Position numbers and translations under genes: made by a program | NCBI RefSeq assembly: GCF_003334355.1 | Contig: NZ_QOWP01000007.1 | Length of the DNA stretch: 64,000 bases | Direction: 5' to 3' (one strand) | Source of the DNA: Escherichia coli | GTDB lineage: Bacteria; Pseudomonadota; Gammaproteobacteria; Enterobacterales; Enterobacteriaceae | Notes under the pieces: generated by a model | What the model saw: the letters and a program-made list of their open reading frames with translations, nothing else | Databases searched by the model: none | What the model was told of the DNA's origin: nothing | Shown here: positions 30,669 through 51,829 of the stretch, piece by piece | Layout of the letters: each line of letters opens with the position of its first letter | Position numbering within the stretch: the first letter of the stretch is position 1

Positions 30669-31025
30669 ATGAACGCTTATGAACTCCAGGCACTCCGCCA
30701 TATTTTTGCCATGACTATTGATGAATGCGCGACCTGGATTGCCCAGACCGGTGACAGTGAAAGCTGGCGTCAATGGGAAAATGGCAAGTGTGCCATTCCT
30801 GATTGTGTAGTCGAGCAACTGTTGGCTATGCGTCAGCAAAGAAAAAAACATCTTCATGCGATCATAGAGAAAATAAATAACCGCATCGGCAACAACACCA
30901 TGCGTTTTTTCCCCGACTTAACCGCGTTTCAACAAGTCTACCCTGATGGCAATTTTATTGACTGGAAGATCTATCAATCGGTAGCCGCTGAATTATATGC
31001 ACACGATCTGGAGCGGCTTTGTTAA
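30669..31025 (+). CDS. ydiL: YdiL
   Basis: 118-aa product from MNAYELQALRHIF; ORF-track start 30642 is an extension. Confidence 0.7.
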   Translation: MNAYELQALRHIFAMTIDECATWIAQTGDSESWRQWENGKCAIPDCVVEQLLAMRQQRKKHLHAIIEKINNRIGNNTMRFFPDLTAFQQVYPDGNFIDWKIYQSVAAELYAHDLERLC

Positions 31026-34739: not shown

Positions 34740-35498
34740 ATGAAAACCGTAACTGTAAAAGATCTCGTCATTGGTGCGGGCGCACCTAAAATCATCGTCT
34801 CGCTGATGGCGAAAGATATCGCCCGCGTGAAATCCGAAGCTCTCGCCTATCGTGAAGCGGACTTTGATATTCTGGAATGGCGTGTGGACCACTTTGCCGA
34901 CCTCTCCAATGTGGAGTCTGTCATGGCGGCGGCAAAAATTCTCCGTGAAACCATGCCAGAAAAACCGCTGCTGTTTACCTTCCGCAGTGCCAAAGAAGGC
35001 GGCGAGCAGGCGATTTCCACCGAGGCTTATATTGCTCTCAATCGTGCAGCCATCGACAGCGGCCTGGTTGATATGATCGATCTGGAGTTATTTACCGGCG
35101 ATGATCAGGTTAAAGAAACCGTCGCCTACGCCCACGCGCATGATGTGAAAGTTGTCATGTCCAACCATGACTTCCATAAAACGCCGGAAGCCGAAGAAAT
35201 CATTGCCCGTCTGCGCAAAATGCAATCCTTCGACGCCGATATTCCTAAGATTGCGCTGATGCCGCAAAGTACCAGCGATGTGCTGACGTTGCTTGCCGCG
35301 ACCCTGGAGATGCAGGAGCAGTATGCCGATCGTCCAATCATCACGATGTCGATGGCAAAAACTGGCGTAATTTCTCGTCTGGCTGGTGAAGTATTTGGGT
35401 CGGCGGCAACTTTTGGTGCGGTAAAAAAAGCCTCTGCGCCAGGGCAAATCTCGGTAACTGATTTACGCACAGTATTAACTATTTTACATCAGGCATAA
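34740..35498 (+). CDS. aroD: 3-dehydroquinate dehydratase type I
   Basis: 252-aa ORF, recognised. Confidence 0.93.
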
Positions 35499-35642
35499 GC
35501 AATAATATTTCGGCGGGAATATCCTCCCCCGCCGAACTAAAAAAATATATTCAACCGTATTTAATAAAAATATTTCGTGAGTCTCTGTGCGCTAATTATC
35601 CATCTGGCGTAGGGAAAATCACACCTGAATCAGGAATTAACA

Positions 35643-37238
35643 ATGAAACCTGTAAAACCACCTCGTATTAATGGACGAGTGCCGGTCCTGTCGGCACAGG
35701 AAGCGGTGAATTATATTCCCGACGAAGCAACACTTTGTGTGTTAGGCGCTGGCGGCGGTATTCTGGAAGCCACCACGTTAATTACTGCTCTTGCTGATAA
35801 ATATAAACAGACTCAAACGCCACGTAATTTATCGATTATTAGTCCAACAGGGCTTGGCGATCGCGCCGACCGCGGTATTAGTCCGCTGGCGCAAGAAGGT
35901 CTGCTGAAATGGGCATTATGCGGTCACTGGGGACAATCGCCGCGTATTTCTGATCTCGCAGAACAAAATAAAATTATTGCTTATAACTATCCACAAGGTG
36001 TACTTACACAAACCTTACGCGCCGCCGCAGCCCACCAGCCTGGTATTATTAGTGATATTGGCATCGGGACATTTGTCGATCCACGCCAGCAAGGCGGCAA
36101 ACTGAATGAAGTCACTAAAGAAGACCTGATTAAACTGGTCGAGTTTGATAACAAAGAATATCTCTATTACAAAGCGATTGCGCCAGATATCGCCTTCATT
36201 CGCGCTACCACCTGCGACAGCGAAGGCTACGCCACTTTTGAAGATGAGGTGATGTATCTCGACGCATTGGTTATTGCCCAGGCGGTGCACAATAACGGCG
36301 GTATTGTGATGATGCAGGTGCAGAAAATGGTTAAGAAAGCCACGCTGCATCCTAAATCTGTCCGTATTCCGGGTTATCTGGTGGATATTGTGGTGGTCGA
36401 TCCGGATCAAACCCAACTGTATGGCGGTGCACCGGTTAACCGCTTTATTTCTGGTGACTTCACCCTTGATGACAGTACCAAACTTAGCCTGCCCCTAAAC
36501 CAACGTAAATTAGTTGCGCGGCGCGCATTATTCGAAATGCGTAAAGGCGCGGTGGGGAATGTCGGCGTCGGTATTGCTGACGGCATTGGCCTGGTCGCCC
36601 GAGAAGAAGGTTGTGCTGATGACTTTATTCTGACGGTAGAAACAGGTCCGATTGGCGGAATTACTTCACAGGGGATCGCCTTTGGCGCGAACGTGAATAC
36701 CCGTGCCATTCTGGATATGACGTCCCAGTTTGATTTTTATCACGGTGGCGGTCTGGATGTTTGTTATTTGAGTTTTGCTGAAGTCGACCAGCACGGTAAC
36801 GTCGGCGTGCATAAATTCAATGGTAAAATCATGGGCACCGGTGGATTTATTGATATCAGTGCCACTTCGAAGAAAATCATTTTCTGCGGCACATTAACTG
36901 CGGGCAGTTTAAAAACAGAAATTACCGACGGCAAATTAAATATCGTCCAGGAAGGACGGGTGAAGAAATTTATTCGGGAACTACCGGAAATTACTTTCAG
37001 CGGAAAAATCGCTCTCGAGCGAGGGCTGGATGTTCGTTATATCACTGAGCGCGCAGTATTCACGCTGAAAGAAGACGGCCTGCATTTAATCGAAATCGCC
37101 CCTGGCGTCGATTTACAAAAAGATATTCTCGACAAAATGGATTTCACCCCAGTGATTTCGCCAGAACTCAAACTGATGGACGAAAGATTATTTATCGATG
37201 CGGCGATGGGTTTTGTCCTGCCTGAAGCGGCTCATTAA
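35643..37238 (+). CDS. ydiF: Fused alpha/beta-subunit CoA-transferase YdiF
   Basis: 531-aa ORF. Confidence 0.85.
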   Translation: MKPVKPPRINGRVPVLSAQEAVNYIPDEATLCVLGAGGGILEATTLITALADKYKQTQTPRNLSIISPTGLGDRADRGISPLAQEGLLKWALCGHWGQSPRISDLAEQNKIIAYNYPQGVLTQTLRAAAAHQPGIISDIGIGTFVDPRQQGGKLNEVTKEDLIKLVEFDNKEYLYYKAIAPDIAFIRATTCDSEGYATFEDEVMYLDALVIAQAVHNNGGIVMMQVQKMVKKATLHPKSVRIPGYLVDIVVVDPDQTQLYGGAPVNRFISGDFTLDDSTKLSLPLNQRKLVARRALFEMRKGAVGNVGVGIADGIGLVAREEGCADDFILTVETGPIGGITSQGIAFGANVNTRAILDMTSQFDFYHGGGLDVCYLSFAEVDQHGNVGVHKFNGKIMGTGGFIDISATSKKIIFCGTLTAGSLKTEITDGKLNIVQEGRVKKFIRELPEITFSGKIALERGLDVRYITERAVFTLKEDGLHLIEIAPGVDLQKDILDKMDFTPVISPELKLMDERLFIDAAMGFVLPEAAH

Positions 37239-37251
37239 CAGGAGTATAATG

Positions 37252-38403
37252 ATGGATTTTTCTTTAACTGAAGAACAAGAACTGCTGCTGGCCAGTATTC
37301 GCGAACTGATTACGACTAACTTTCCGGAAGAGTATTTCCGCACCTGCGATCAAAACGGGACATATCCGCGTGAGTTTATGCGGGCGCTGGCGGATAACGG
37401 TATTTCCATGCTTGGCGTGCCGGAAGAATTTGGTGGTATCCCTGCGGATTACGTCACCCAAATGCTGGCGCTGATGGAAGTGTCAAAATGCGGTGCTCCG
37501 GCATTTTTAATTACCAACGGTCAATGTATTCACAGTATGCGCCGTTTCGGTTCTGCAGAGCAGCTACGTAAAACGGCAGAAAGCACCCTGGAAACCGGCG
37601 ACCCCGCCTATGCCCTGGCGTTGACGGAACCAGGTGCTGGCTCAGATAACAACAGTGCCACCACCACTTACACGCGTAAAAACGGCAAGGTTTACATCAA
37701 CGGACAGAAAACCTTTATTACCGGTGCGAAAGAGTACCCGTATATGCTGGTGTTGGCGCGCGATCCGCAACCGAAAGATCCCAAAAAAGCCTTCACCCTG
37801 TGGTGGGTCGACTCCAGTAAGCCCGGCATTAAGATTAACCCGCTGCATAAAATCGGCTGACATATGCTCAGCACCTGCGAAGTCTATCTCGACAACGTGG
37901 AAGTTGAAGAGAGCGACATGGTGGGCGAAGAAGGAATGGGTTTCCTCAATGTGATGTACAACTTTGAGATGGAGCGCCTGATCAACGCCGCGCGCAGCAC
38001 CGGCTTTGCCGAATGCGCCTTTGAAGATGCCGCCCGCTATGCCAACCAACGTATCGCTTTTGGTAAGCCCATTGGTCATAACCAGATGATCCAGGAAAAA
38101 CTGGCGCTGATGGCGATTAAGATTGACAACATGCGCAACATGGTGCTGAAAGTGGCATGGCAAGCCGATCAGCATCAGTCACTGCGCACCAGCGCGGCGC
38201 TGGCAAAACTGTATTGCGCACGTACCGCAATGGAAGTCATTGATGATGCGATTCAAATCATGGGCGGTCTGGGCTATACCGATGAAGCGCGCGTCTCCCG
38301 CTTCTGGCGTGATGTCCGTTGTGAACGTATCGGCGGCGGTACAGACGAAATTATGATTTACGTAGCAGGTCGGCAGATCCTGAAAGACTATCAGAACAAA
38401 TAA
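37252..38403 (+). pseudogene. ydiO: Acyl-CoA dehydrogenase YdiO interrupted by in-frame TGA at 37858..37860
   Basis: Two same-frame ORFs (202 aa and 179 aa) separated only by TGA-CAT; together 383 codons, the length of intact ydiO. Confidence 0.7.
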
Positions 38404-38445
38404 TCTGCAGGCGGCGCAGCTTCTTAACAAACTGCGCCGCCAGAT

Positions 38446-39357
38446 TTATCCAACAAGACTTACCGGTTGAGGAAATTCAGATAGGATTTCTTGTTCCGCA
38501 AAACAGTTTTTAAATTGCCTGCGGTAATCGCTGGGTGAACAGCCGACATGGCGCAAAAACAGTTTGCCAAAGTGATCGACATTTTCATAACCCACACGCC
38601 AGGAGATCTCTGCCTGTGATAATTCAGTATTAGTGAGTAACCATTTCGCTTCCGTCATACGCCGTTGAATAACATAGTTAATTGGGGAAATACGATACTC
38701 TTTGGTAAATTCATGGCAAATATAACTGACGCTGGCACGAAATTTTTTCGATAACTGTTCTAAAGTGATTTTTTCGCGATAATTATTATTCAGATAGAAA
38801 AGAATATCTTTTATCAGAACATCTTTTTTAATATACCCCTACTCCGAACGATAAGCATTTTTAAAGTTTTCGTAGTAAAGAATTGCTAATGTATAGGCAA
38901 ATGCATCCCATAACGAAGATGTTTGGCTATTTTTACTTTGCGGCAAAATCACACTTAGCTCATTAAATAAGGTTTTAATGACTTCTTTTCCCTGCCCCGC
39001 GGCAATTACCGGACAAGAATGCGGTTGCAGTAGATGATTTTCCTCAGCCCCCTGAAACTGAAAGCCGTACAGCGCACAGGTACACGTCGTTGCCGGATCG
39101 TTAACGTCAGAGGCCACCGCATGCAGCCTGCCGCGTTCTATCACCACTATATCATCTGCATGCGCGACATATAACGAAGAATCGATGGTAAACCTTGCCA
39201 CCCCTTTCTTGACGTAAATCAGCTCGGTTTCATTGTCATGAACGTGATGTCCAGACTCCCATTTTGGATCATCGCTAAATGCAAAACGTGAAAGCCGTGG
39301 CGTTTTACCAGCGACAAACAGCGTTTCACTGGCATTATCAAAACAGCGTTGATACAT
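38446..39357 (-). pseudogene. ydiP: AraC-family regulator YdiP interrupted by in-frame TAG at 38839..38841
   Basis: N-terminal cupin ORF (172 aa) ends at TAG; the frame continues uninterrupted for 60 codons into the 70-aa C-terminal HTH ORF; total 303 codons. Confidence 0.7.
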
Positions 39358-39672: not shown

Positions 39673-40437
39673 ATGAAAATAATAACCTGCTTTAAGCTGG
39701 TGCCTGAAGAACAGGACATTGTTGTCACTCCAGAATACACCCTGAATTTCGACAATGCCGACGCCAAAATCAGCCAGTTCGATCTCAATGCCATTGAAGC
39801 TGCAAGCCAGCTTGCAACAGATGACGATGAGATAGCCGCGCTGACCGTTGGCGGCTCATTGTTGCAGAACTCGAAAGTGCGCAAAGACGTGCTATCCCGC
39901 GGGCCGCACAGCCTGTATATGGTGCAGGATGCACAACTTGAGCATGCACTGCCTCTCGATACCGCAAAAGCGCTGGCGGCAGCAGTTGAAAAGATCGGCT
40001 TCGATTTACTGATCTTTGGTGAAGGTTCCGGCGACCTTTATGCCCAGCAGGTTGGCTTGCTGGTCGGAGAAATTCTGCAACTTCCGGTGATTAATGCAGT
40101 GAGTGCTATTCAGCGTCAGGGCAATACACTGGTGATTGAACGCACGCTTGAAGATGACGTTGAAGTTATTGAACTCTCTGTTCCAGCCGTGCTCTGCGTC
40201 ACCTCCGATATTAACGTGCCACGCATTCCTTCGATGAAAGCCATTCTCGGCGCGGGTAAAAAACCGGTAAATCAGTGGCAGGCAAGTGATATTGGCTGGA
40301 GCCAGAGCGCACCACTTGCTGAACTGACCGGCATTCGCGTACCGCCGCAAACAGAACGTAAGCACATCATTCTCGATAACGATTCGCCGGAGGCCATTGC
40401 CGAGCTGGCGGAACATCTGAAGAAAGCCCTGAACTGA
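39673..40437 (+). CDS. ydiQ: Electron-transfer flavoprotein beta-like subunit YdiQ
   Basis: 254-aa product from MKIITCFKLVPEE; ORF-track start 39574 is an extension. Confidence 0.85.
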   Translation: MKIITCFKLVPEEQDIVVTPEYTLNFDNADAKISQFDLNAIEAASQLATDDDEIAALTVGGSLLQNSKVRKDVLSRGPHSLYMVQDAQLEHALPLDTAKALAAAVEKIGFDLLIFGEGSGDLYAQQVGLLVGEILQLPVINAVSAIQRQGNTLVIERTLEDDVEVIELSVPAVLCVTSDINVPRIPSMKAILGAGKKPVNQWQASDIGWSQSAPLAELTGIRVPPQTERKHIILDNDSPEAIAELAEHLKKALN

Positions 40438-40456
40438 AGCCTACGGAGAAGAAACG

Positions 40457-41395
40457 ATGAGTCAATTAAACAGCGTCTGGGTCTTTAGCGATAATCCTGA
40501 ACGTTATGCTGAACTGTTTGGCGGCGCTCAGCAATGGGGCCAACAGGTGTATGCCATTGTACAAAATACCGACCAGGCGCAGGCAGTTATGCCTTATGGT
40601 CCAAAATGTATTTATGTTCTTGAGCAAAACGACGCGCTGCAACGCACTGAAAATTACGCCGAAAGCATTGCTGCTCTGCTGAAAGATAAACACCCCGCTA
40701 TGTTGCTACTGGCCGCGACGAAACGTGGTAAAGCTCTGGCAGCACGGTTAAGTGTGCAACTGAATGCGGCGCTGGTGAACGATGCCGCGGCGGTGGATAT
40801 TGTCGATGGTCACATTTGCGCCGAACACCGGATGTATGGCGGGTTAGCGTTCGCTCAGGAAAAGATCAACAGCTCGCTGGCGATCATTACCCTTGCACCC
40901 GGTGTTCAGGAACCGTGCGCCAGTGATAACTCTCATCAGTGCCCGACAGAAACGGTACCTTATGTTGCTCCGCGTCATGAAATTCTCTGTCGCGAGCGCC
41001 GTGCGAAAGCGGCAAGCAGCGTGGACCTGAGCAAAGCAAAACGTGTGGTTGGCGTCGGTCGTGGTCTGGCAGCGCAGGATGACCTGAAAATGGTCCACGA
41101 ACTGGCGGCGGTGCTGAATGCTGAAGTCGGCTGTTCACGTCCAATTGCCGAAGGCGAGAACTGGATGGAGCGTGAACGTTATATCGGTGTCTCCGGCGTG
41201 TTGCTGAAATCCGATCTCTACCTGACGCTGGGGATCTCCGGGCAGATCCAACATATGGTTGGCGGCAACGGCGCAAAAGTGATTGTCGCCATCAATAAAG
41301 ATAAAAATGCGCCAATCTTCAACTATGCCGACTACGGTCTGGTGGGCGATATCTACAAAGTCGTCCCTGCCCTGATTAGCCAGTTGAGCCGCTAA
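40457..41395 (+). CDS. ydiR: Electron-transfer flavoprotein alpha-like subunit YdiR
   Basis: 312-aa ORF. Confidence 0.85.
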   Translation: MSQLNSVWVFSDNPERYAELFGGAQQWGQQVYAIVQNTDQAQAVMPYGPKCIYVLEQNDALQRTENYAESIAALLKDKHPAMLLLAATKRGKALAARLSVQLNAALVNDAAAVDIVDGHICAEHRMYGGLAFAQEKINSSLAIITLAPGVQEPCASDNSHQCPTETVPYVAPRHEILCRERRAKAASSVDLSKAKRVVGVGRGLAAQDDLKMVHELAAVLNAEVGCSRPIAEGENWMERERYIGVSGVLLKSDLYLTLGISGQIQHMVGGNGAKVIVAINKDKNAPIFNYADYGLVGDIYKVVPALISQLSR

Positions 41396-41450
41396 TTCCC
41401 CTTTCAACCACATCTCCCGCTGTAAACGCAGCGGGAAGGGAGCATAACGC

Positions 41451-42740
41451 ATGTCGGATGACAAATTTGATGCCATTGTGGTCGGTGCGGGCGTTGCTGG
41501 TAGCGTTGCCGCACTGGTCATGGCACGAGCCGGGCTGGATGTCCTGGTGATAGAACGCGGCGACAGTGCCGGATGTAAAAACATGACCGGCGGGCGCCTT
41601 TATGCCCACACACTTGAAGCAATCATTCCAGGCTTTGCAGCATCAGCGCCGGTAGAACGCAAGGTCACACGCGAGAAAATCTCCTTCTTAACCGAAGAGA
41701 GCGCCGTTACCCTCGATTTTCACCGCGAGCAACCAGATGTTCCGCAACACGCATCTTATACCGTATTGCGTAATCGTCTGGACCCGTGGTTGATGGAACA
41801 TGCCGAGCAGGCGGGCGCACAGTTTATCCCGGGAGTTCGCGTCGATGCGCTGGTTCGTGAAGGAAACAAGGTAACTGGCGTGCAGGCTGGGGATGATATT
41901 CTCGAAGCGAATGTGGTGATTCTGGCTGATGGCGTTAACTCGATGCTTGGCCGCTCGCTGGGAATGGTTCCCGCTTCCGATCCGCATCATTACGCTGTTG
42001 GTGTTAAAGAGGTTATTGGCCTCACACCAGAACAGATCAATGATCGCTTTAATATTACGGGCGAGGAAGGTGCCGCCTGGCTGTTTGCCGGTTCCCCTTC
42101 TGACGGCCTGATGGGTGGCGGATTCCTCTATACCAACAACGATTCCGTATCGTTGGGGCTGGTTTGTGGATTGGGTGATATCACCCATGCGCAAAAAAGC
42201 GTGCCGCAAATGCTGGAAGATTTTAAACAACACCCCGCCATTCGCCCACTAATTAGCGGCGGCAAACTGCTTGAATATTCCGCGCATATGGTGCCAGAAG
42301 GCGGTCTGGCAATGGTGCCGCAGCTGGTTAACGATGGCGTGATGATCGTTGGTGACGCCGCAGGCTTCTGCCTGAATTTGGGTTTTACAGTTCGTGGCAT
42401 GGATTTAGCCATTGCATCGGCTCAGGCTGCCGCCACAACGGTGATCGCCGCCAAAGAACGCGAGGATTTCTCCGCCAGCAGTCTGGCGCAATACAAACGA
42501 GAGCTGGAACAAAGTTGTGTTATGCGCGATATGCAGCATTTTCGCAAGATCCCGGCGCTGATGGAAAACCCGCGCCTGTTTAGCCAATACCCACGAATGG
42601 TAGCCGACATCATGAACGAGATGTTCACCATTGACGGCAAACCAAACCAGCCGGTACGCAAAATGATCATGGGACACGCGAAGAAAATTGGGCTGATCAA
42701 CTTGCTGAAAGATGGCATTAAGGGAGCAACCGCGCTATGA
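41451..42740 (+). CDS. ydiS: ETF-quinone oxidoreductase-like flavoprotein YdiS
   Basis: 429-aa ORF, FAD motif VVGAGVAGS. Confidence 0.85.
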   Translation: MSDDKFDAIVVGAGVAGSVAALVMARAGLDVLVIERGDSAGCKNMTGGRLYAHTLEAIIPGFAASAPVERKVTREKISFLTEESAVTLDFHREQPDVPQHASYTVLRNRLDPWLMEHAEQAGAQFIPGVRVDALVREGNKVTGVQAGDDILEANVVILADGVNSMLGRSLGMVPASDPHHYAVGVKEVIGLTPEQINDRFNITGEEGAAWLFAGSPSDGLMGGGFLYTNNDSVSLGLVCGLGDITHAQKSVPQMLEDFKQHPAIRPLISGGKLLEYSAHMVPEGGLAMVPQLVNDGVMIVGDAAGFCLNLGFTVRGMDLAIASAQAAATTVIAAKEREDFSASSLAQYKRELEQSCVMRDMQHFRKIPALMENPRLFSQYPRMVADIMNEMFTIDGKPNQPVRKMIMGHAKKIGLINLLKDGIKGATAL

Positions 42741-43030
42741 GCCAGAACGCTACGGTTAACGTCGACATCAAATTAGGCGTCAATAAATTCCATGTTGATG
42801 AGGGCCACCCGCATATCATTCTGGCGGAAAATCCCGATATCAATGAATTCCGTAAATTAATGAAAGCCTGCCCTGCCGGACTTTATAAGCAGGATGATGC
42901 AGGAAACATTCATTTTGATTCCGCCGGTTGTCTGGAGTGCGGCACCTGTCGGGTGCTGTGCGGTAACACTATTCTCGAACATTGGCAATATCCCGCAGGC
43001 ACCTTCGGTATTGATTTTCGCTACGGCTAA
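42737..43030 (+). CDS. ydiT: Ferredoxin-like protein YdiT
   Basis: 97-aa ORF, 4-bp overlap with ydiS, Cys cluster CLECGTCRVLC. Confidence 0.85.
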   Translation: MSQNATVNVDIKLGVNKFHVDEGHPHIILAENPDINEFRKLMKACPAGLYKQDDAGNIHFDSAGCLECGTCRVLCGNTILEHWQYPAGTFGIDFRYG

Positions 43031-43086
43031 TCATGCATCCCACAGGCCCGCATCTCGGGCCTGATGTTCTGTTTCGAGAGTCCAAC

Positions 43087-44733
43087 ATGAAAGTGACATT
43101 AACGTTTAACGAACAACGTCGTGCGGCGTATCGTCAGCAAGGGCTATGGGGCGATGCTTCGCTGGCCGATTACTGGCAGCAGACCGCTCGTGCGATGCCA
43201 GACAAAATTGCCGTGGTCGATAATCATGGTGCATCGTACACCTATAGCGCGCTCGATCACGCCGCGAGCTGTCTGGCAAACTGGATGTTGACGAAGGGTA
43301 TTGAATCAGGCGATCGCATCGCATTTCAACTGCCTGGCTGGTGTGAATTTACCGTTATCTATCTTGCCTGCCTGAAAATCGGTGCGGTTTCCGTACCGCT
43401 GTTGCCTTCCTGGCGGGAAGCAGAACTGGTATGGGTACTCAATAAGTGTCAGGCAAAAATGTTCTTTGCACCGACGTTGTTTAAACAAACGCGTCCGGTA
43501 GATTTAATCCTGCCGCTGCAAAATCAGCTTCCACAACTACAACAAATTGTCGGCGTGGACAAACTGACTCCCGCCACCTCTTCCCTCTCATTAAGTCAGA
43601 TTATCGCCGACAATACCTCACTGACCACGGCGATAACGACCCACGGCGATGAATTAGCTGCGGTGCTGTTTACCTCCGGAACCGAGGGTCTGCCAAAGGG
43701 CGTGATGCTTACGCATAACAATATTCTCGCCAGTGAGCGGGCTTATTGCGCGCGGCTGAATCTGACCTGGCAGGATGTCTTTATGATGCCTGCGCCACTC
43801 GGCCACGCAACGGGCTTTCTGCATGGCGTAACAGCACCATTTTTGATTGGTGCTCGCAGCGTGTTGTTAGATATTTTCACTCCTGATGCGTGTCTCGCGC
43901 TGCTTGAGCAGCAGCGTTGCACCTGTATGCTCGGCGCAACGCCGTTTGTCTATGATCTTTTGAATGTACTAGAGAAACAGCCCGCAGACCTTTCAGCGCT
44001 GCGTTTCTTTCTTTGCGGCGGTACCACAATCCCCAAAAAAGTGGCACGTGAATGCCAGCAGCGCGGCATTAAATTATTAAGTGTTTATGGTTCCACAGAA
44101 AGTTCGCCGCATGCGGTGGTGAATCTCGATGATCCTTTGTCGCGCTTTATGCACACCGATGGTTACGCTGCCGCAGGTGTAGAGATTAAAGTGGTCGATG
44201 ACGCACGCAAGACCTTACCGCCAGGTTGTGAAGGTGAAGAAGCCTCGCGTGGCCCCAATGTGTTTATGGGGTATTTTGATGAACCTGAATTAACCGCCCG
44301 TGCGCTGGATGAAGAAGGCTGGTATTACAGCGGCGATCTCTGCCGCATGGATGAGGCTGGCTATATAAAAATTACCGGACGCAAAAAAGATATTATTGTC
44401 CGCGGCGGCGAAAATATTAGCAGCCGTGAAGTAGAAGATATTTTATTGCAGCATCCTAAAATTCACGATGCCTGTGTGGTTGCAATGCCCGATGAACGTT
44501 TAGGTGAACGATCATGCGCTTATGTCGTGCTGAAAGCGCCGCATCATTCATTATCGCTGGAAGAGGTGGTGGCTTTTTTTAGCCGTAAACGGGTCGCAAA
44601 ATATAAATATCCTGAACATATCGTAGTGATCGAAAAACTGCCGCGTACAGCCTCAGGTAAAATACAAAAATTTTTGTTAAGGAAAGATATTATGCGGCGA
44701 TTAACTCAGGATGTCTGTGAAGAGATTGAATAA
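43087..44733 (+). CDS. fadK: Short-chain acyl-CoA synthetase (anaerobic) FadK
   Basis: 548-aa product from MKVTLTFNEQ; AMP-binding motif; ORF-track 43033 start is an extension. Confidence 0.85.
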   Translation: MKVTLTFNEQRRAAYRQQGLWGDASLADYWQQTARAMPDKIAVVDNHGASYTYSALDHAASCLANWMLTKGIESGDRIAFQLPGWCEFTVIYLACLKIGAVSVPLLPSWREAELVWVLNKCQAKMFFAPTLFKQTRPVDLILPLQNQLPQLQQIVGVDKLTPATSSLSLSQIIADNTSLTTAITTHGDELAAVLFTSGTEGLPKGVMLTHNNILASERAYCARLNLTWQDVFMMPAPLGHATGFLHGVTAPFLIGARSVLLDIFTPDACLALLEQQRCTCMLGATPFVYDLLNVLEKQPADLSALRFFLCGGTTIPKKVARECQQRGIKLLSVYGSTESSPHAVVNLDDPLSRFMHTDGYAAAGVEIKVVDDARKTLPPGCEGEEASRGPNVFMGYFDEPELTARALDEEGWYYSGDLCRMDEAGYIKITGRKKDIIVRGGENISSREVEDILLQHPKIHDACVVAMPDERLGERSCAYVVLKAPHHSLSLEEVVAFFSRKRVAKYKYPEHIVVIEKLPRTASGKIQKFLLRKDIMRRLTQDVCEEIE

Positions 44734-49668: not shown

Positions 49669-49860
49669 ATGCGTTATACGGATAGCAGAAAACTCACGCC
49701 TGAAACGGATGCCAATCACAAGACCGCTTCCCCGCAGCCCATCCGGCGAATTACCAGCCAGACACTGTTAGGTCCGGATGGCAAACTGATTATCGATCAT
49801 GACGGGCAAGAATATCTGCTCCGTAAAACTCAGGCTGGCAAGCTGCTGTTAACTAAGTAG
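49669..49860 (+). CDS. ydiE: HemP-like small protein YdiE
   Basis: 63-aa product from [10 protein letters not shown]. Confidence 0.75.
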
Positions 49861-49863
49861 CCT

Positions 49864-50517
<654 letters not shown>

Positions 50518-50551
50518 GGGGCACCTTTACCCCACCAACCTGATACCATTA

Positions 50552-51829
50552 TCAGATGGTTGATAGATCGACCCCGTAGTTGAGTTCCTCTGCGAAGTCC
50601 GGCAGTCCGTAACCGATGGTTTTCTTGTAGAACGGAGAGACCTTCGCGGTCGGGGCCTTCTTCTTGTGCTTCGTGGTGTAGAGCATTCGTGCCCGCATCA
50701 CCTCGAAGGAGTAACCACGTCCTTCACGGTTCTTGTCCTTGGCCAGTCGGTTGATGGACTCCGTGTAAGCGTTGGTGACGGGCATGTCCGTCTCGAAGTA
50801 GGTCATGATCTCTTCGCGCCAGTTGCCTACAGCCCTGACCAGATCGCTCCAGACTTCCTTCTGGCCCTTCGGGATGGTGGCTATCCACTCGTCCAGGGCG
50901 GCTTCTGCCTGGGGCCGTGTGGTAGCGTCCCAGATGCCGTAGAAACGTTCCTTGTGCTCGTAGGCGGCCAGCAGTTGTGGGAATGCGCCGGTCCAGGTCT
51001 CCATGATGAGGCGTTCCCGGTTTGAGACTTCGTGAGCGCGTTTCAGCAGGATTTTCCGGTCACCCTTGAGGGTTCGGCTCTGGGAGGGCATCAGCTCCTT
51101 CCTGAGGCCCTTGCGCACCTTCTCCAGGGCATCGTTGGCCATGCGCACCACATGGAACTTATCGACCACGATGCGGGCCTGTGGCAGCACCGCCTTGACC
51201 GCTGCTCGGTAGGGATTCCACATGTCCATGCTGACGATCTTGACCTTCTGCCGGTCTTTCATCTTCATCAGGTAGTTGGTCACCACGTCCTGACGGCGGG
51301 TGGCCAGCAGGTCGAGCAGGGTCCTCTCCTCGATGTTGGTCAGGATGCAGCGGTAGCGCTTGTTCAGGTACAACTCGTCAATGCCGAGAATGCGGGGCGT
51401 CTCGAAGCGGTGCCAGCGCCCCAGGAATTCGGCGCGGGCGTTGAAAATGTCGCGTACCGTCTTCTCGTCCAGGCCCGTGGTATCAGCCACGTAGGCGTAG
51501 GGGTGATTGAAGGCTTCCTTCTCCACGTACTCATGCAACCGCAGCGTCATGCGGAAGCCGTCCACCATCTCCGGTAGCTGGGGCCTGAAGGTGGTCTTGC
51601 AGGCCCGGCAGGTGTACCGGCGACGAACTACCCAGAGGGTGACCCGCTTGCCGTGGATGGGCAGGTCACGATAGGGAACATCACGCTTGCCGAACCGCAC
51701 GAACTCACCCTGCACGCCGCACCCCTCGCAGGCTACTGGTGTAGGAGCTTCAAGCCGAAAATGTATGTCTTCATTCTGCTCATCAGAATCCACCAACTGG
51801 TACCCAGGAAGGCTTAACGAATTAATCAT
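50552..51829 (-). CDS. tnpA: ISL3-family DDE transposase
   Basis: 425-aa ORF; N-terminal zinc ribbon CEGCG...CRAC, overall ISL3 transposase architecture. Confidence 0.88.
   Translation of the reverse strand: MINSLSLPGYQLVDSDEQNEDIHFRLEAPTPVACEGCGVQGEFVRFGKRDVPYRDLPIHGKRVTLWVVRRRYTCRACKTTFRPQLPEMVDGFRMTLRLHEYVEKEAFNHPYAYVADTTGLDEKTVRDIFNARAEFLGRWHRFETPRILGIDELYLNKRYRCILTNIEERTLLDLLATRRQDVVTNYLMKMKDRQKVKIVSMDMWNPYRAAVKAVLPQARIVVDKFHVVRMANDALEKVRKGLRKELMPSQSRTLKGDRKILLKRAHEVSNRERLIMETWTGAFPQLLAAYEHKERFYGIWDATTRPQAEAALDEWIATIPKGQKEVWSDLVRAVGNWREEIMTYFETDMPVTNAYTESINRLAKDKNREGRGYSFEVMRARMLYTTKHKKKAPTAKVSPFYKKTIGYGLPDFAEELNYGVDLSTI

Follow-up and report, generated by a model that had tools for sequence, protein, structure and literature searches.

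ydiO as a probable recent nonsense pseudogene in a small clone of Escherichia coli

In the strain of Escherichia coli from which the DNA analysed here was obtained, the acyl-CoA dehydrogenase gene ydiO is very probably a nonsense pseudogene of recent origin that is restricted to one lineage. At position 37860 of the window, as we call the whole stretch of 64,000 nucleotides that was analysed, a spontaneous G:C to A:T transition changed the codon for Trp203 (TGG) into an opal stop (TGA). The gene acts together with ydiQRST in anaerobic fatty-acid beta-oxidation (PMC10318755, PMC3967523), and it is still counted among the poorly characterised genes (PMC6412132). The stop had already been noticed in a preliminary description of the window, and the present analysis supports that description and its interpretation as correct, apart from one sum of codons given below.

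The interrupted reading frame and the truncated protein

The disrupted gene and its parts are as follows:

37252..38403, plus strand: disrupted ydiO, coding for the acyl-CoA dehydrogenase of the anaerobic beta-oxidation cluster; 383 codons, interrupted by one internal stop
37858..37860, plus strand: premature stop TGA, codon 203 of ydiO, from TGG (Trp) by G to A at 37860
37252..37857, plus strand: N-terminal fragment of ydiO, 202 codons, with the Pfam domains Acyl-CoA_dh_N and Acyl-CoA_dh_M
37864..38403, plus strand: C-terminal fragment of ydiO, 179 codons and stop, with the Acyl-CoA_dh_1 helical domain; its first codon is that of Met205 in the intact protein

Translation of the 1,152-nt frame (37252-38403, plus strand) yields a 383-codon YdiO with an internal stop at codon 203, flanked by the residues ...INPLHKIG on one side and H MLSTCEVYLDNVEV on the other, which confirms the in-frame TGA at 37858-37860 by which the preliminary description had seen ydiO split. 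The two halves of 202 and 179 codons were found as it had given them, but they do not sum to the 383 codons of the intact gene as it had also stated: 202 + 179 = 381, and the remaining two codons, the stop (203) and His204, separate the two open reading frames. In the program-made list of open reading frames the upstream one starts at ATG 37198 and is 220 aa long; the start annotated in relatives is 37252, not ATG 37198.

The ydiO of E. coli HS differs from that of the window by 1 mismatch in 1,152 nt, which is A in the window vs G in HS at 37860, the third base of codon 203 (W203*). TGG is found at this codon in HS, PSS-12, ATCC 8739 and many other loci, and A at 37860 is derived on the branch of the window when PSS-12 is compared with ATCC 8739 as outgroup. 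With a single difference from HS and TGG as the ancestral codon, the single-base nonsense change that had been thought plausible is borne out. It had also been asked whether the reference ydiO might itself be two genes; it is one, annotated as a single 1,152-nt CDS in complete genomes, with at least 80% of it present in one piece in 5,358.

The gene lies in the standard order aroD-ydiF-ydiO-ydiP-ydiQRST-fadK-ppsA, and the window runs collinear with the annotated regions of PSS-12 and ATCC 8739. Many complete E. coli genomes have a ydiO that matches this region at 99.9% identity. Against NF008997, the NCBIfam model of YdiO with 382 positions, the 202-aa piece matches positions 1-202 with 380.8 bits and the 179-aa piece positions 205-382 with 376.4 bits. 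The two pieces are thus collinear over the whole of the NF008997 / PRK12341 model, so the pattern is not one of chance open reading frames. Each fragment alone scores below the curated whole-protein cutoff of NF008997 (537 bits), and since the frame is also broken at codon 203, the gene is a disrupted member of the family, that is a pseudogene, and not an intact one. In Pfam terms the first fragment carries PF02771 and PF02770 and the second PF00441, which together make up the three-domain architecture of acyl-CoA dehydrogenases (ACADs). With the frame restored, YdiO matches 55 solved ACAD sequences, best of all 4rm7 (E=9.5e-59, residues 5-381).

The stop sits where the Acyl-CoA_dh_M domain gives way to the Acyl-CoA_dh_1 domain. 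In the ACAD fold, the C-terminal helical domain supplies the last part of the flavin and substrate site and of the oligomer interface. Translation would end after the N-terminal and middle beta domains, leaving the C-terminal helical domain absent from the protein, and judging from the sequence the truncated YdiO should be inactive, save for a small full-length fraction arising from natural readthrough of UGA. The stop has no polar effect on any gene downstream, because ydiO is the last gene in its transcription unit and ydiP converges on it.

Carriers, recurrence and lineage history

How rare is the allele? Carriers were counted with queries of 35 nt that have the variant in the middle, where no megablast seed of 28 nt can avoid it. 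By such queries neither TGA nor TAG is present at ydiO codon 203 in any of the 5,426 complete E. coli genomes (0/5,426 for each), while as a positive control the stop in the neighbouring ydiP was retrieved in 2/5,426. Identity bands of 71 nt were dropped as a means of counting carriers, because a TGA genome with one nearby SNP resembles a TGG genome. In the much larger body of draft assemblies and sequencing runs, 59 contigs, listed in 86 index blocks, encode exactly the 202-aa product. It is already on record as WP_286040009.1/MDL5428728.1, an 'acyl-CoA dehydrogenase family protein, partial'.

At least four other backgrounds carry independent hits at codon 203: TGA stands there at 52-53 and 80 differences from the window, and TAG at 56 and 81. 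Such recurrence raises the question of a mutational hotspot, for which W185* serves as a control. Genuine internal TAG or TGA stops at this codon lie inside long contigs on at least seven backgrounds, and W185* occurs in 123 index blocks vs 86 for W203*. As W185 repeats the pattern of W203, codon 203 is not a hotspot. Ten other truncation products of ydiO that are one transition away were also looked up; 10/10 are on record, on 2-244 contigs each vs 59 for W203*, W185* alone among these ten being confirmed as an internal stop and the other nine standing as product counts only. Raw contig counts of truncated products were rejected as a hotspot control because, as a calibration with pheS revealed, they are inflated by genes cut at contig ends: the 158-aa 'partial' product of this essential gene is listed on 225 contigs, and all 24 contigs examined collapse to two contig-end places, with 22 further similar places. 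Many public contigs break at the identical point in pheS, after codon 158 (L031, L032; at about 61518 of the window, where pheS occupies 61008-61991 on the minus strand). Counts for ydiF (2-24 contigs) are not comparable with those for ydiO, as exact matching depends on the frequency of the YdiF sequence of the window.

Two local mechanisms of mutation were considered and discarded. The context of the mutated base is GCTGGC and not CCWGG, which on direct reading of the sequence removes a Dcm-site hotspot. Templating by a quasi-palindrome, or stabilisation of the hairpin that spans the stop (GCUGAC-AUAU-GCUCAGC), was rejected as well, because the mutation weakens this hairpin (-5.7 kcal/mol in the mutant vs -7.8 in the TGG allele) and W185 behaves as W203 does. 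Codon 203 is not exceptional, and ydiO collects independent null alleles at low frequency.

What do the other null alleles look like? Those of E. coli and Shigella include W185* (TAG or TGA), the confirmed internal stop, which arises by the same G:C to A:T change at a Trp codon and is likewise a set of rare, scattered, independent events. They also include, as product matches only, a 280-aa protein as from Q281* and a 302-aa protein as from W303*, the latter in Shigella boydii ATCC 9905. Insertions of IS903B and IS1 in ydiO elsewhere reach the same outcome in the same gene by another mechanism. Besides these IS insertions in ydiO, the disruptions of the cluster extend to HS, in which ydiF is frameshifted and ydiP is truncated by IS1. 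These many independent nulls of low frequency indicate that the gene is dispensable in many niches and point to weak selection on it. The clone of the window differs from other ydiO null alleles in that it adds ydiP Q173* and an ISL3-family insertion in selO.

The first of these additional lesions lies close by:

38446..39357, minus strand: ydiP, AraC-family regulator (= CsiP), disrupted; 303 codons, broken by a stop at codon 173
38839..38841, minus strand: premature stop TAG, codon 173 of ydiP (Q173*), from CAG (Gln) by G to A at 38841 on the plus strand

The ydiP stop is about 1 kb from that of ydiO and is found also on another background (L015). The gene is intact as a 912-nt CDS in PSS-12 and ATCC 8739; the two complete genomes with Q173* are FLI21 and 99COLEC, in both of which PGAP flags an 'internal stop'. 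Loci that differ from the window by 1-7 SNPs over 34840-38700 have the ydiP TAG together with ydiO TGG, and among the close relatives over this interval the ydiO stop is confined to the subgroup identical to the window. Because close relatives thus combine the ydiP TAG with an intact ydiO, ydiP was hit first and ydiO second. On the same ydiP-null haplotype, FLI21, L016 and L019 have ydiF Q108* (CAA to TAA) with ydiO intact; in FLI21 (L037, NZ_CP139808.1) positions 320-1915 are the equivalent of the window ydiF at 35643-37238. This ydiF Q108* is a separate secondary hit in the ydiF/ydiO pair within the ydiP-null haplotype.

Over 15-64 kb the window has ten derived SNPs, eight of them G:C to A:T and two of them the nonsense changes in ydiO and ydiP. 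Derived amino-acid changes of the window are also seen in Fe-S assembly genes, namely SufS P375S (19455) and SufC F84L (22315). On the branch of PSS-12, 4/9 derived SNPs in 15-64 kb are amino-acid changes in ydi genes: YdiN Y230F (33254), YdiF A208V (36265), YdiO M71I (37464) and YdiO G90S (37519), four changes that are consistent with weak constraint on the cluster. PSS-12 also differs by a copy of IS1203 (IS3 family), which lies between rprA and ydiL and is missing from the window (30691-30695; PSS-12 locus L002 1239-2452). Compared with the window, L013, L016 and L019 have 3-5 differences across aroD-ydiP and about 45 further ones between about 39.9 and 43.4 kb; this jump, at about 39900-43356, suggests a recombination boundary in the ydiQ-ydiS region.

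The interruption of selO in the window is of another kind. A 2,985-bp element of the ISL3 family (50494-53478) splits the gene, of which remnants are left at about 49864-50493 and 53479-54293 on the minus strand. The element is bordered by an 8-bp target duplication (CAAATAAA), has imperfect terminal inverted repeats of about 24 bp, and carries the following genes:

50552-51829: ISL3 transposase
51842-52876: metal-efflux-like permease
52976-53302: ArsR-type regulator

Plasmids such as pSY3626_190k_tetX carry a unit with 99.4% identity to it, in which lnu(G) interrupts the transposase. No complete E. coli genome has 80% or more of window 49800-54400 in a single place, and the element is accordingly at this selO site in none of them.

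Was the loss of the module favoured by selection? A precedent for its decay exists in Salmonella, where extraintestinal serovars show an excess of decayed genes among ydiFO, ydiQRST and fadHIJK (PMC3967523). There, too, the ydi cluster has been pseudogenised repeatedly with several genes of the module hit per lineage, and the counterpart in the lineage of the window is ydiP with ydiO, or ydiP with ydiF. The Salmonella decay is, however, tied to a documented change of lifestyle across serovars, whereas the carrier here is a very small clone of E. coli of commensal type, for which no change of niche is known. An adaptive reading would hold that inactivation of the anaerobic beta-oxidation module, in ydiP and then in ydiO or ydiF, was advantageous. 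Of about 8-9 coding SNPs derived on the branch of the window, two are nonsense changes, in adjacent genes, and the probability of two or more is about 0.045-0.056 under a G:C to A:T model, a value suggestive at most; two separate secondary stops (ydiF Q108* and ydiO W203*) arose within one ydiP-null haplotype; and null alleles recur on many backgrounds. On the other hand, the numbers are small and the locus was picked after the fact for containing a stop, every carrier belongs to a rare terminal lineage and there is no sign of a sweep, and recurrence at low frequency is what weak purifying selection leads one to expect in very large samples. We therefore regard selection for the loss as unlikely.

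The order of events might also reflect a functional link that has gone unrecognised, the early loss of ydiP opening the way to the stops in ydiO and ydiF. If YdiP/CsiP were needed to express the anaerobic beta-oxidation module, loss of ydiP would silence the module and let ydiFO decay, and ydiP would then have a role beyond the cold-shock function reported in K-12. The suggestion derives from the divergent position of ydiP beside ydiQ (ydiQRST-fadK). In K-12, YdiP has been characterised as a regulator of cold-shock genes and renamed CsiP (PMC9283627). The part of the supplementary text on YdiP ChIP-seq that was available, which concerns cold-shock conditions, makes no mention of ydiQ, ydiO, ydiF or fadK and to that extent lends the link no support (PMC9283627). 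It seems a doubtful explanation.

Readthrough, sequencing error, restart and recoding

Could the cell still make the whole protein? UGA is the leakiest stop of E. coli and is misread mainly as Trp (PMC11126739), so that with Trp as the ancestral residue at codon 203 the readthrough product would be wild-type YdiO. Readthrough rises at low temperature and under nutrient scarcity (PMC11126739). The W203* allele may accordingly be a hypomorph rather than a null. It would be a further step to suppose that near-cognate tRNA-Trp restores wild-type YdiO at a useful level, leaving the gene attenuated or expressed conditionally, and that the allele is kept by selection for this reason, and several observations speak against it. 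TAG, which is not read as Trp, occurs at the same codon on other backgrounds; truncations from Gln to stop are recorded in similar numbers, which gives no sign of an advantage specific to Trp and UGA; and the allele is confined to a tiny clone. The published rates, moreover, come from K-12, which is described as having a weak RF2, and it is disputed what a C following the stop does (PMC11126739). A useful leaky allele maintained by selection is therefore improbable. Nor is there any mark of programmed readthrough, unlike which the ydiO stop has neither conservation nor an identified stimulatory element: it is private to a small clone, no Rfam element is found in 37700-38100, and the hairpin is weaker in the mutant.

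An error of sequencing or assembly, with G as the true base at 37860, might be suspected from a single-base difference that is absent from all 5,426 complete genomes. The same base is, however, shared by three separately deposited datasets (GCA_014464935.1, SRR3951466 and SRR3823860) on a haplotype that matches the window without a difference for about 5 kb, both stops included, and in a comparison of about 61 kb with PSS-12, the nearest complete genome, the window shows 27 SNPs and not one small indel, which is not the picture of a noisy assembly. The TGA is thus taken as real on the basis of independent assemblies rather than of read pileups, and a random sequencing error is very unlikely.

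The two halves might alternatively work as a split gene, the 202-aa product and a 179-aa product restarted at ATG 37864 assembling into an active enzyme. The break at a domain boundary would suit such an arrangement, and with an in-frame AUG 3 nt after the UGA some restart product is possible. The anti-Shine-Dalgarno duplex at ATG 37864, however, amounts to -1.7 kcal/mol vs -6.9 at the native start, which is weaker than the median of -2.6 for all ATGs inside ydiO. As far as can be read from the DNA, this ATG is without Shine-Dalgarno support and could be fed only by termination and restart across the 3 nt past the stop. The two-gene arrangement is found in no E. coli genome or solved homologue, and the allele is recent and rare, all of which makes a functional split gene highly improbable.

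E. coli has the machinery for selenocysteine (Sec). Like the selenoprotein genes of the fdhF type, then, ydiO has an in-frame UGA in an oxidoreductase gene of a host with this machinery, and the 81 nt around the stop form a more stable fold than shuffled sequences do (z = -2.76). Recoding of the UGA as selenocysteine can nevertheless be dismissed as having a vanishingly small probability, in agreement with the earlier opinion that it was unlikely for want of a SECIS-like hairpin: a search of 37700-38100 with Rfam families including the SECIS models gave no match even at E<=10, the structure is that of ordinary coding sequence common to all TGG alleles, the ancestral residue is Trp, the residue aligned to YdiO 203 in solved acyl-CoA dehydrogenases is Gln or Leu and never Cys or Sec, and TAG alleles of codon 203 occur on other backgrounds. 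Unlike the fdhF-type genes, ydiO thus has no SECIS and no homologues with Cys or Sec at the position, and its UGA is derived and private to one clone.

Meaning for annotation and for the ydi cluster

The correct annotation is one disrupted ydiO with an internal stop, not two short acyl-CoA dehydrogenase genes and not a candidate for recoding. Tallies of truncated proteins taken from large assembly collections run too high, because they include genes cut off at contig ends. A change from Trp to UGA is the sole kind of nonsense mutation whose readthrough yields the wild-type protein, so that "pseudogene" need not mean "null". W203* is one of many null alleles in a dispensable cluster, present in a small clone, and possibly a weak hypomorph. 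The ydi cluster for anaerobic beta-oxidation is dispensable and decays piecemeal in E. coli, as has already been described for Salmonella.
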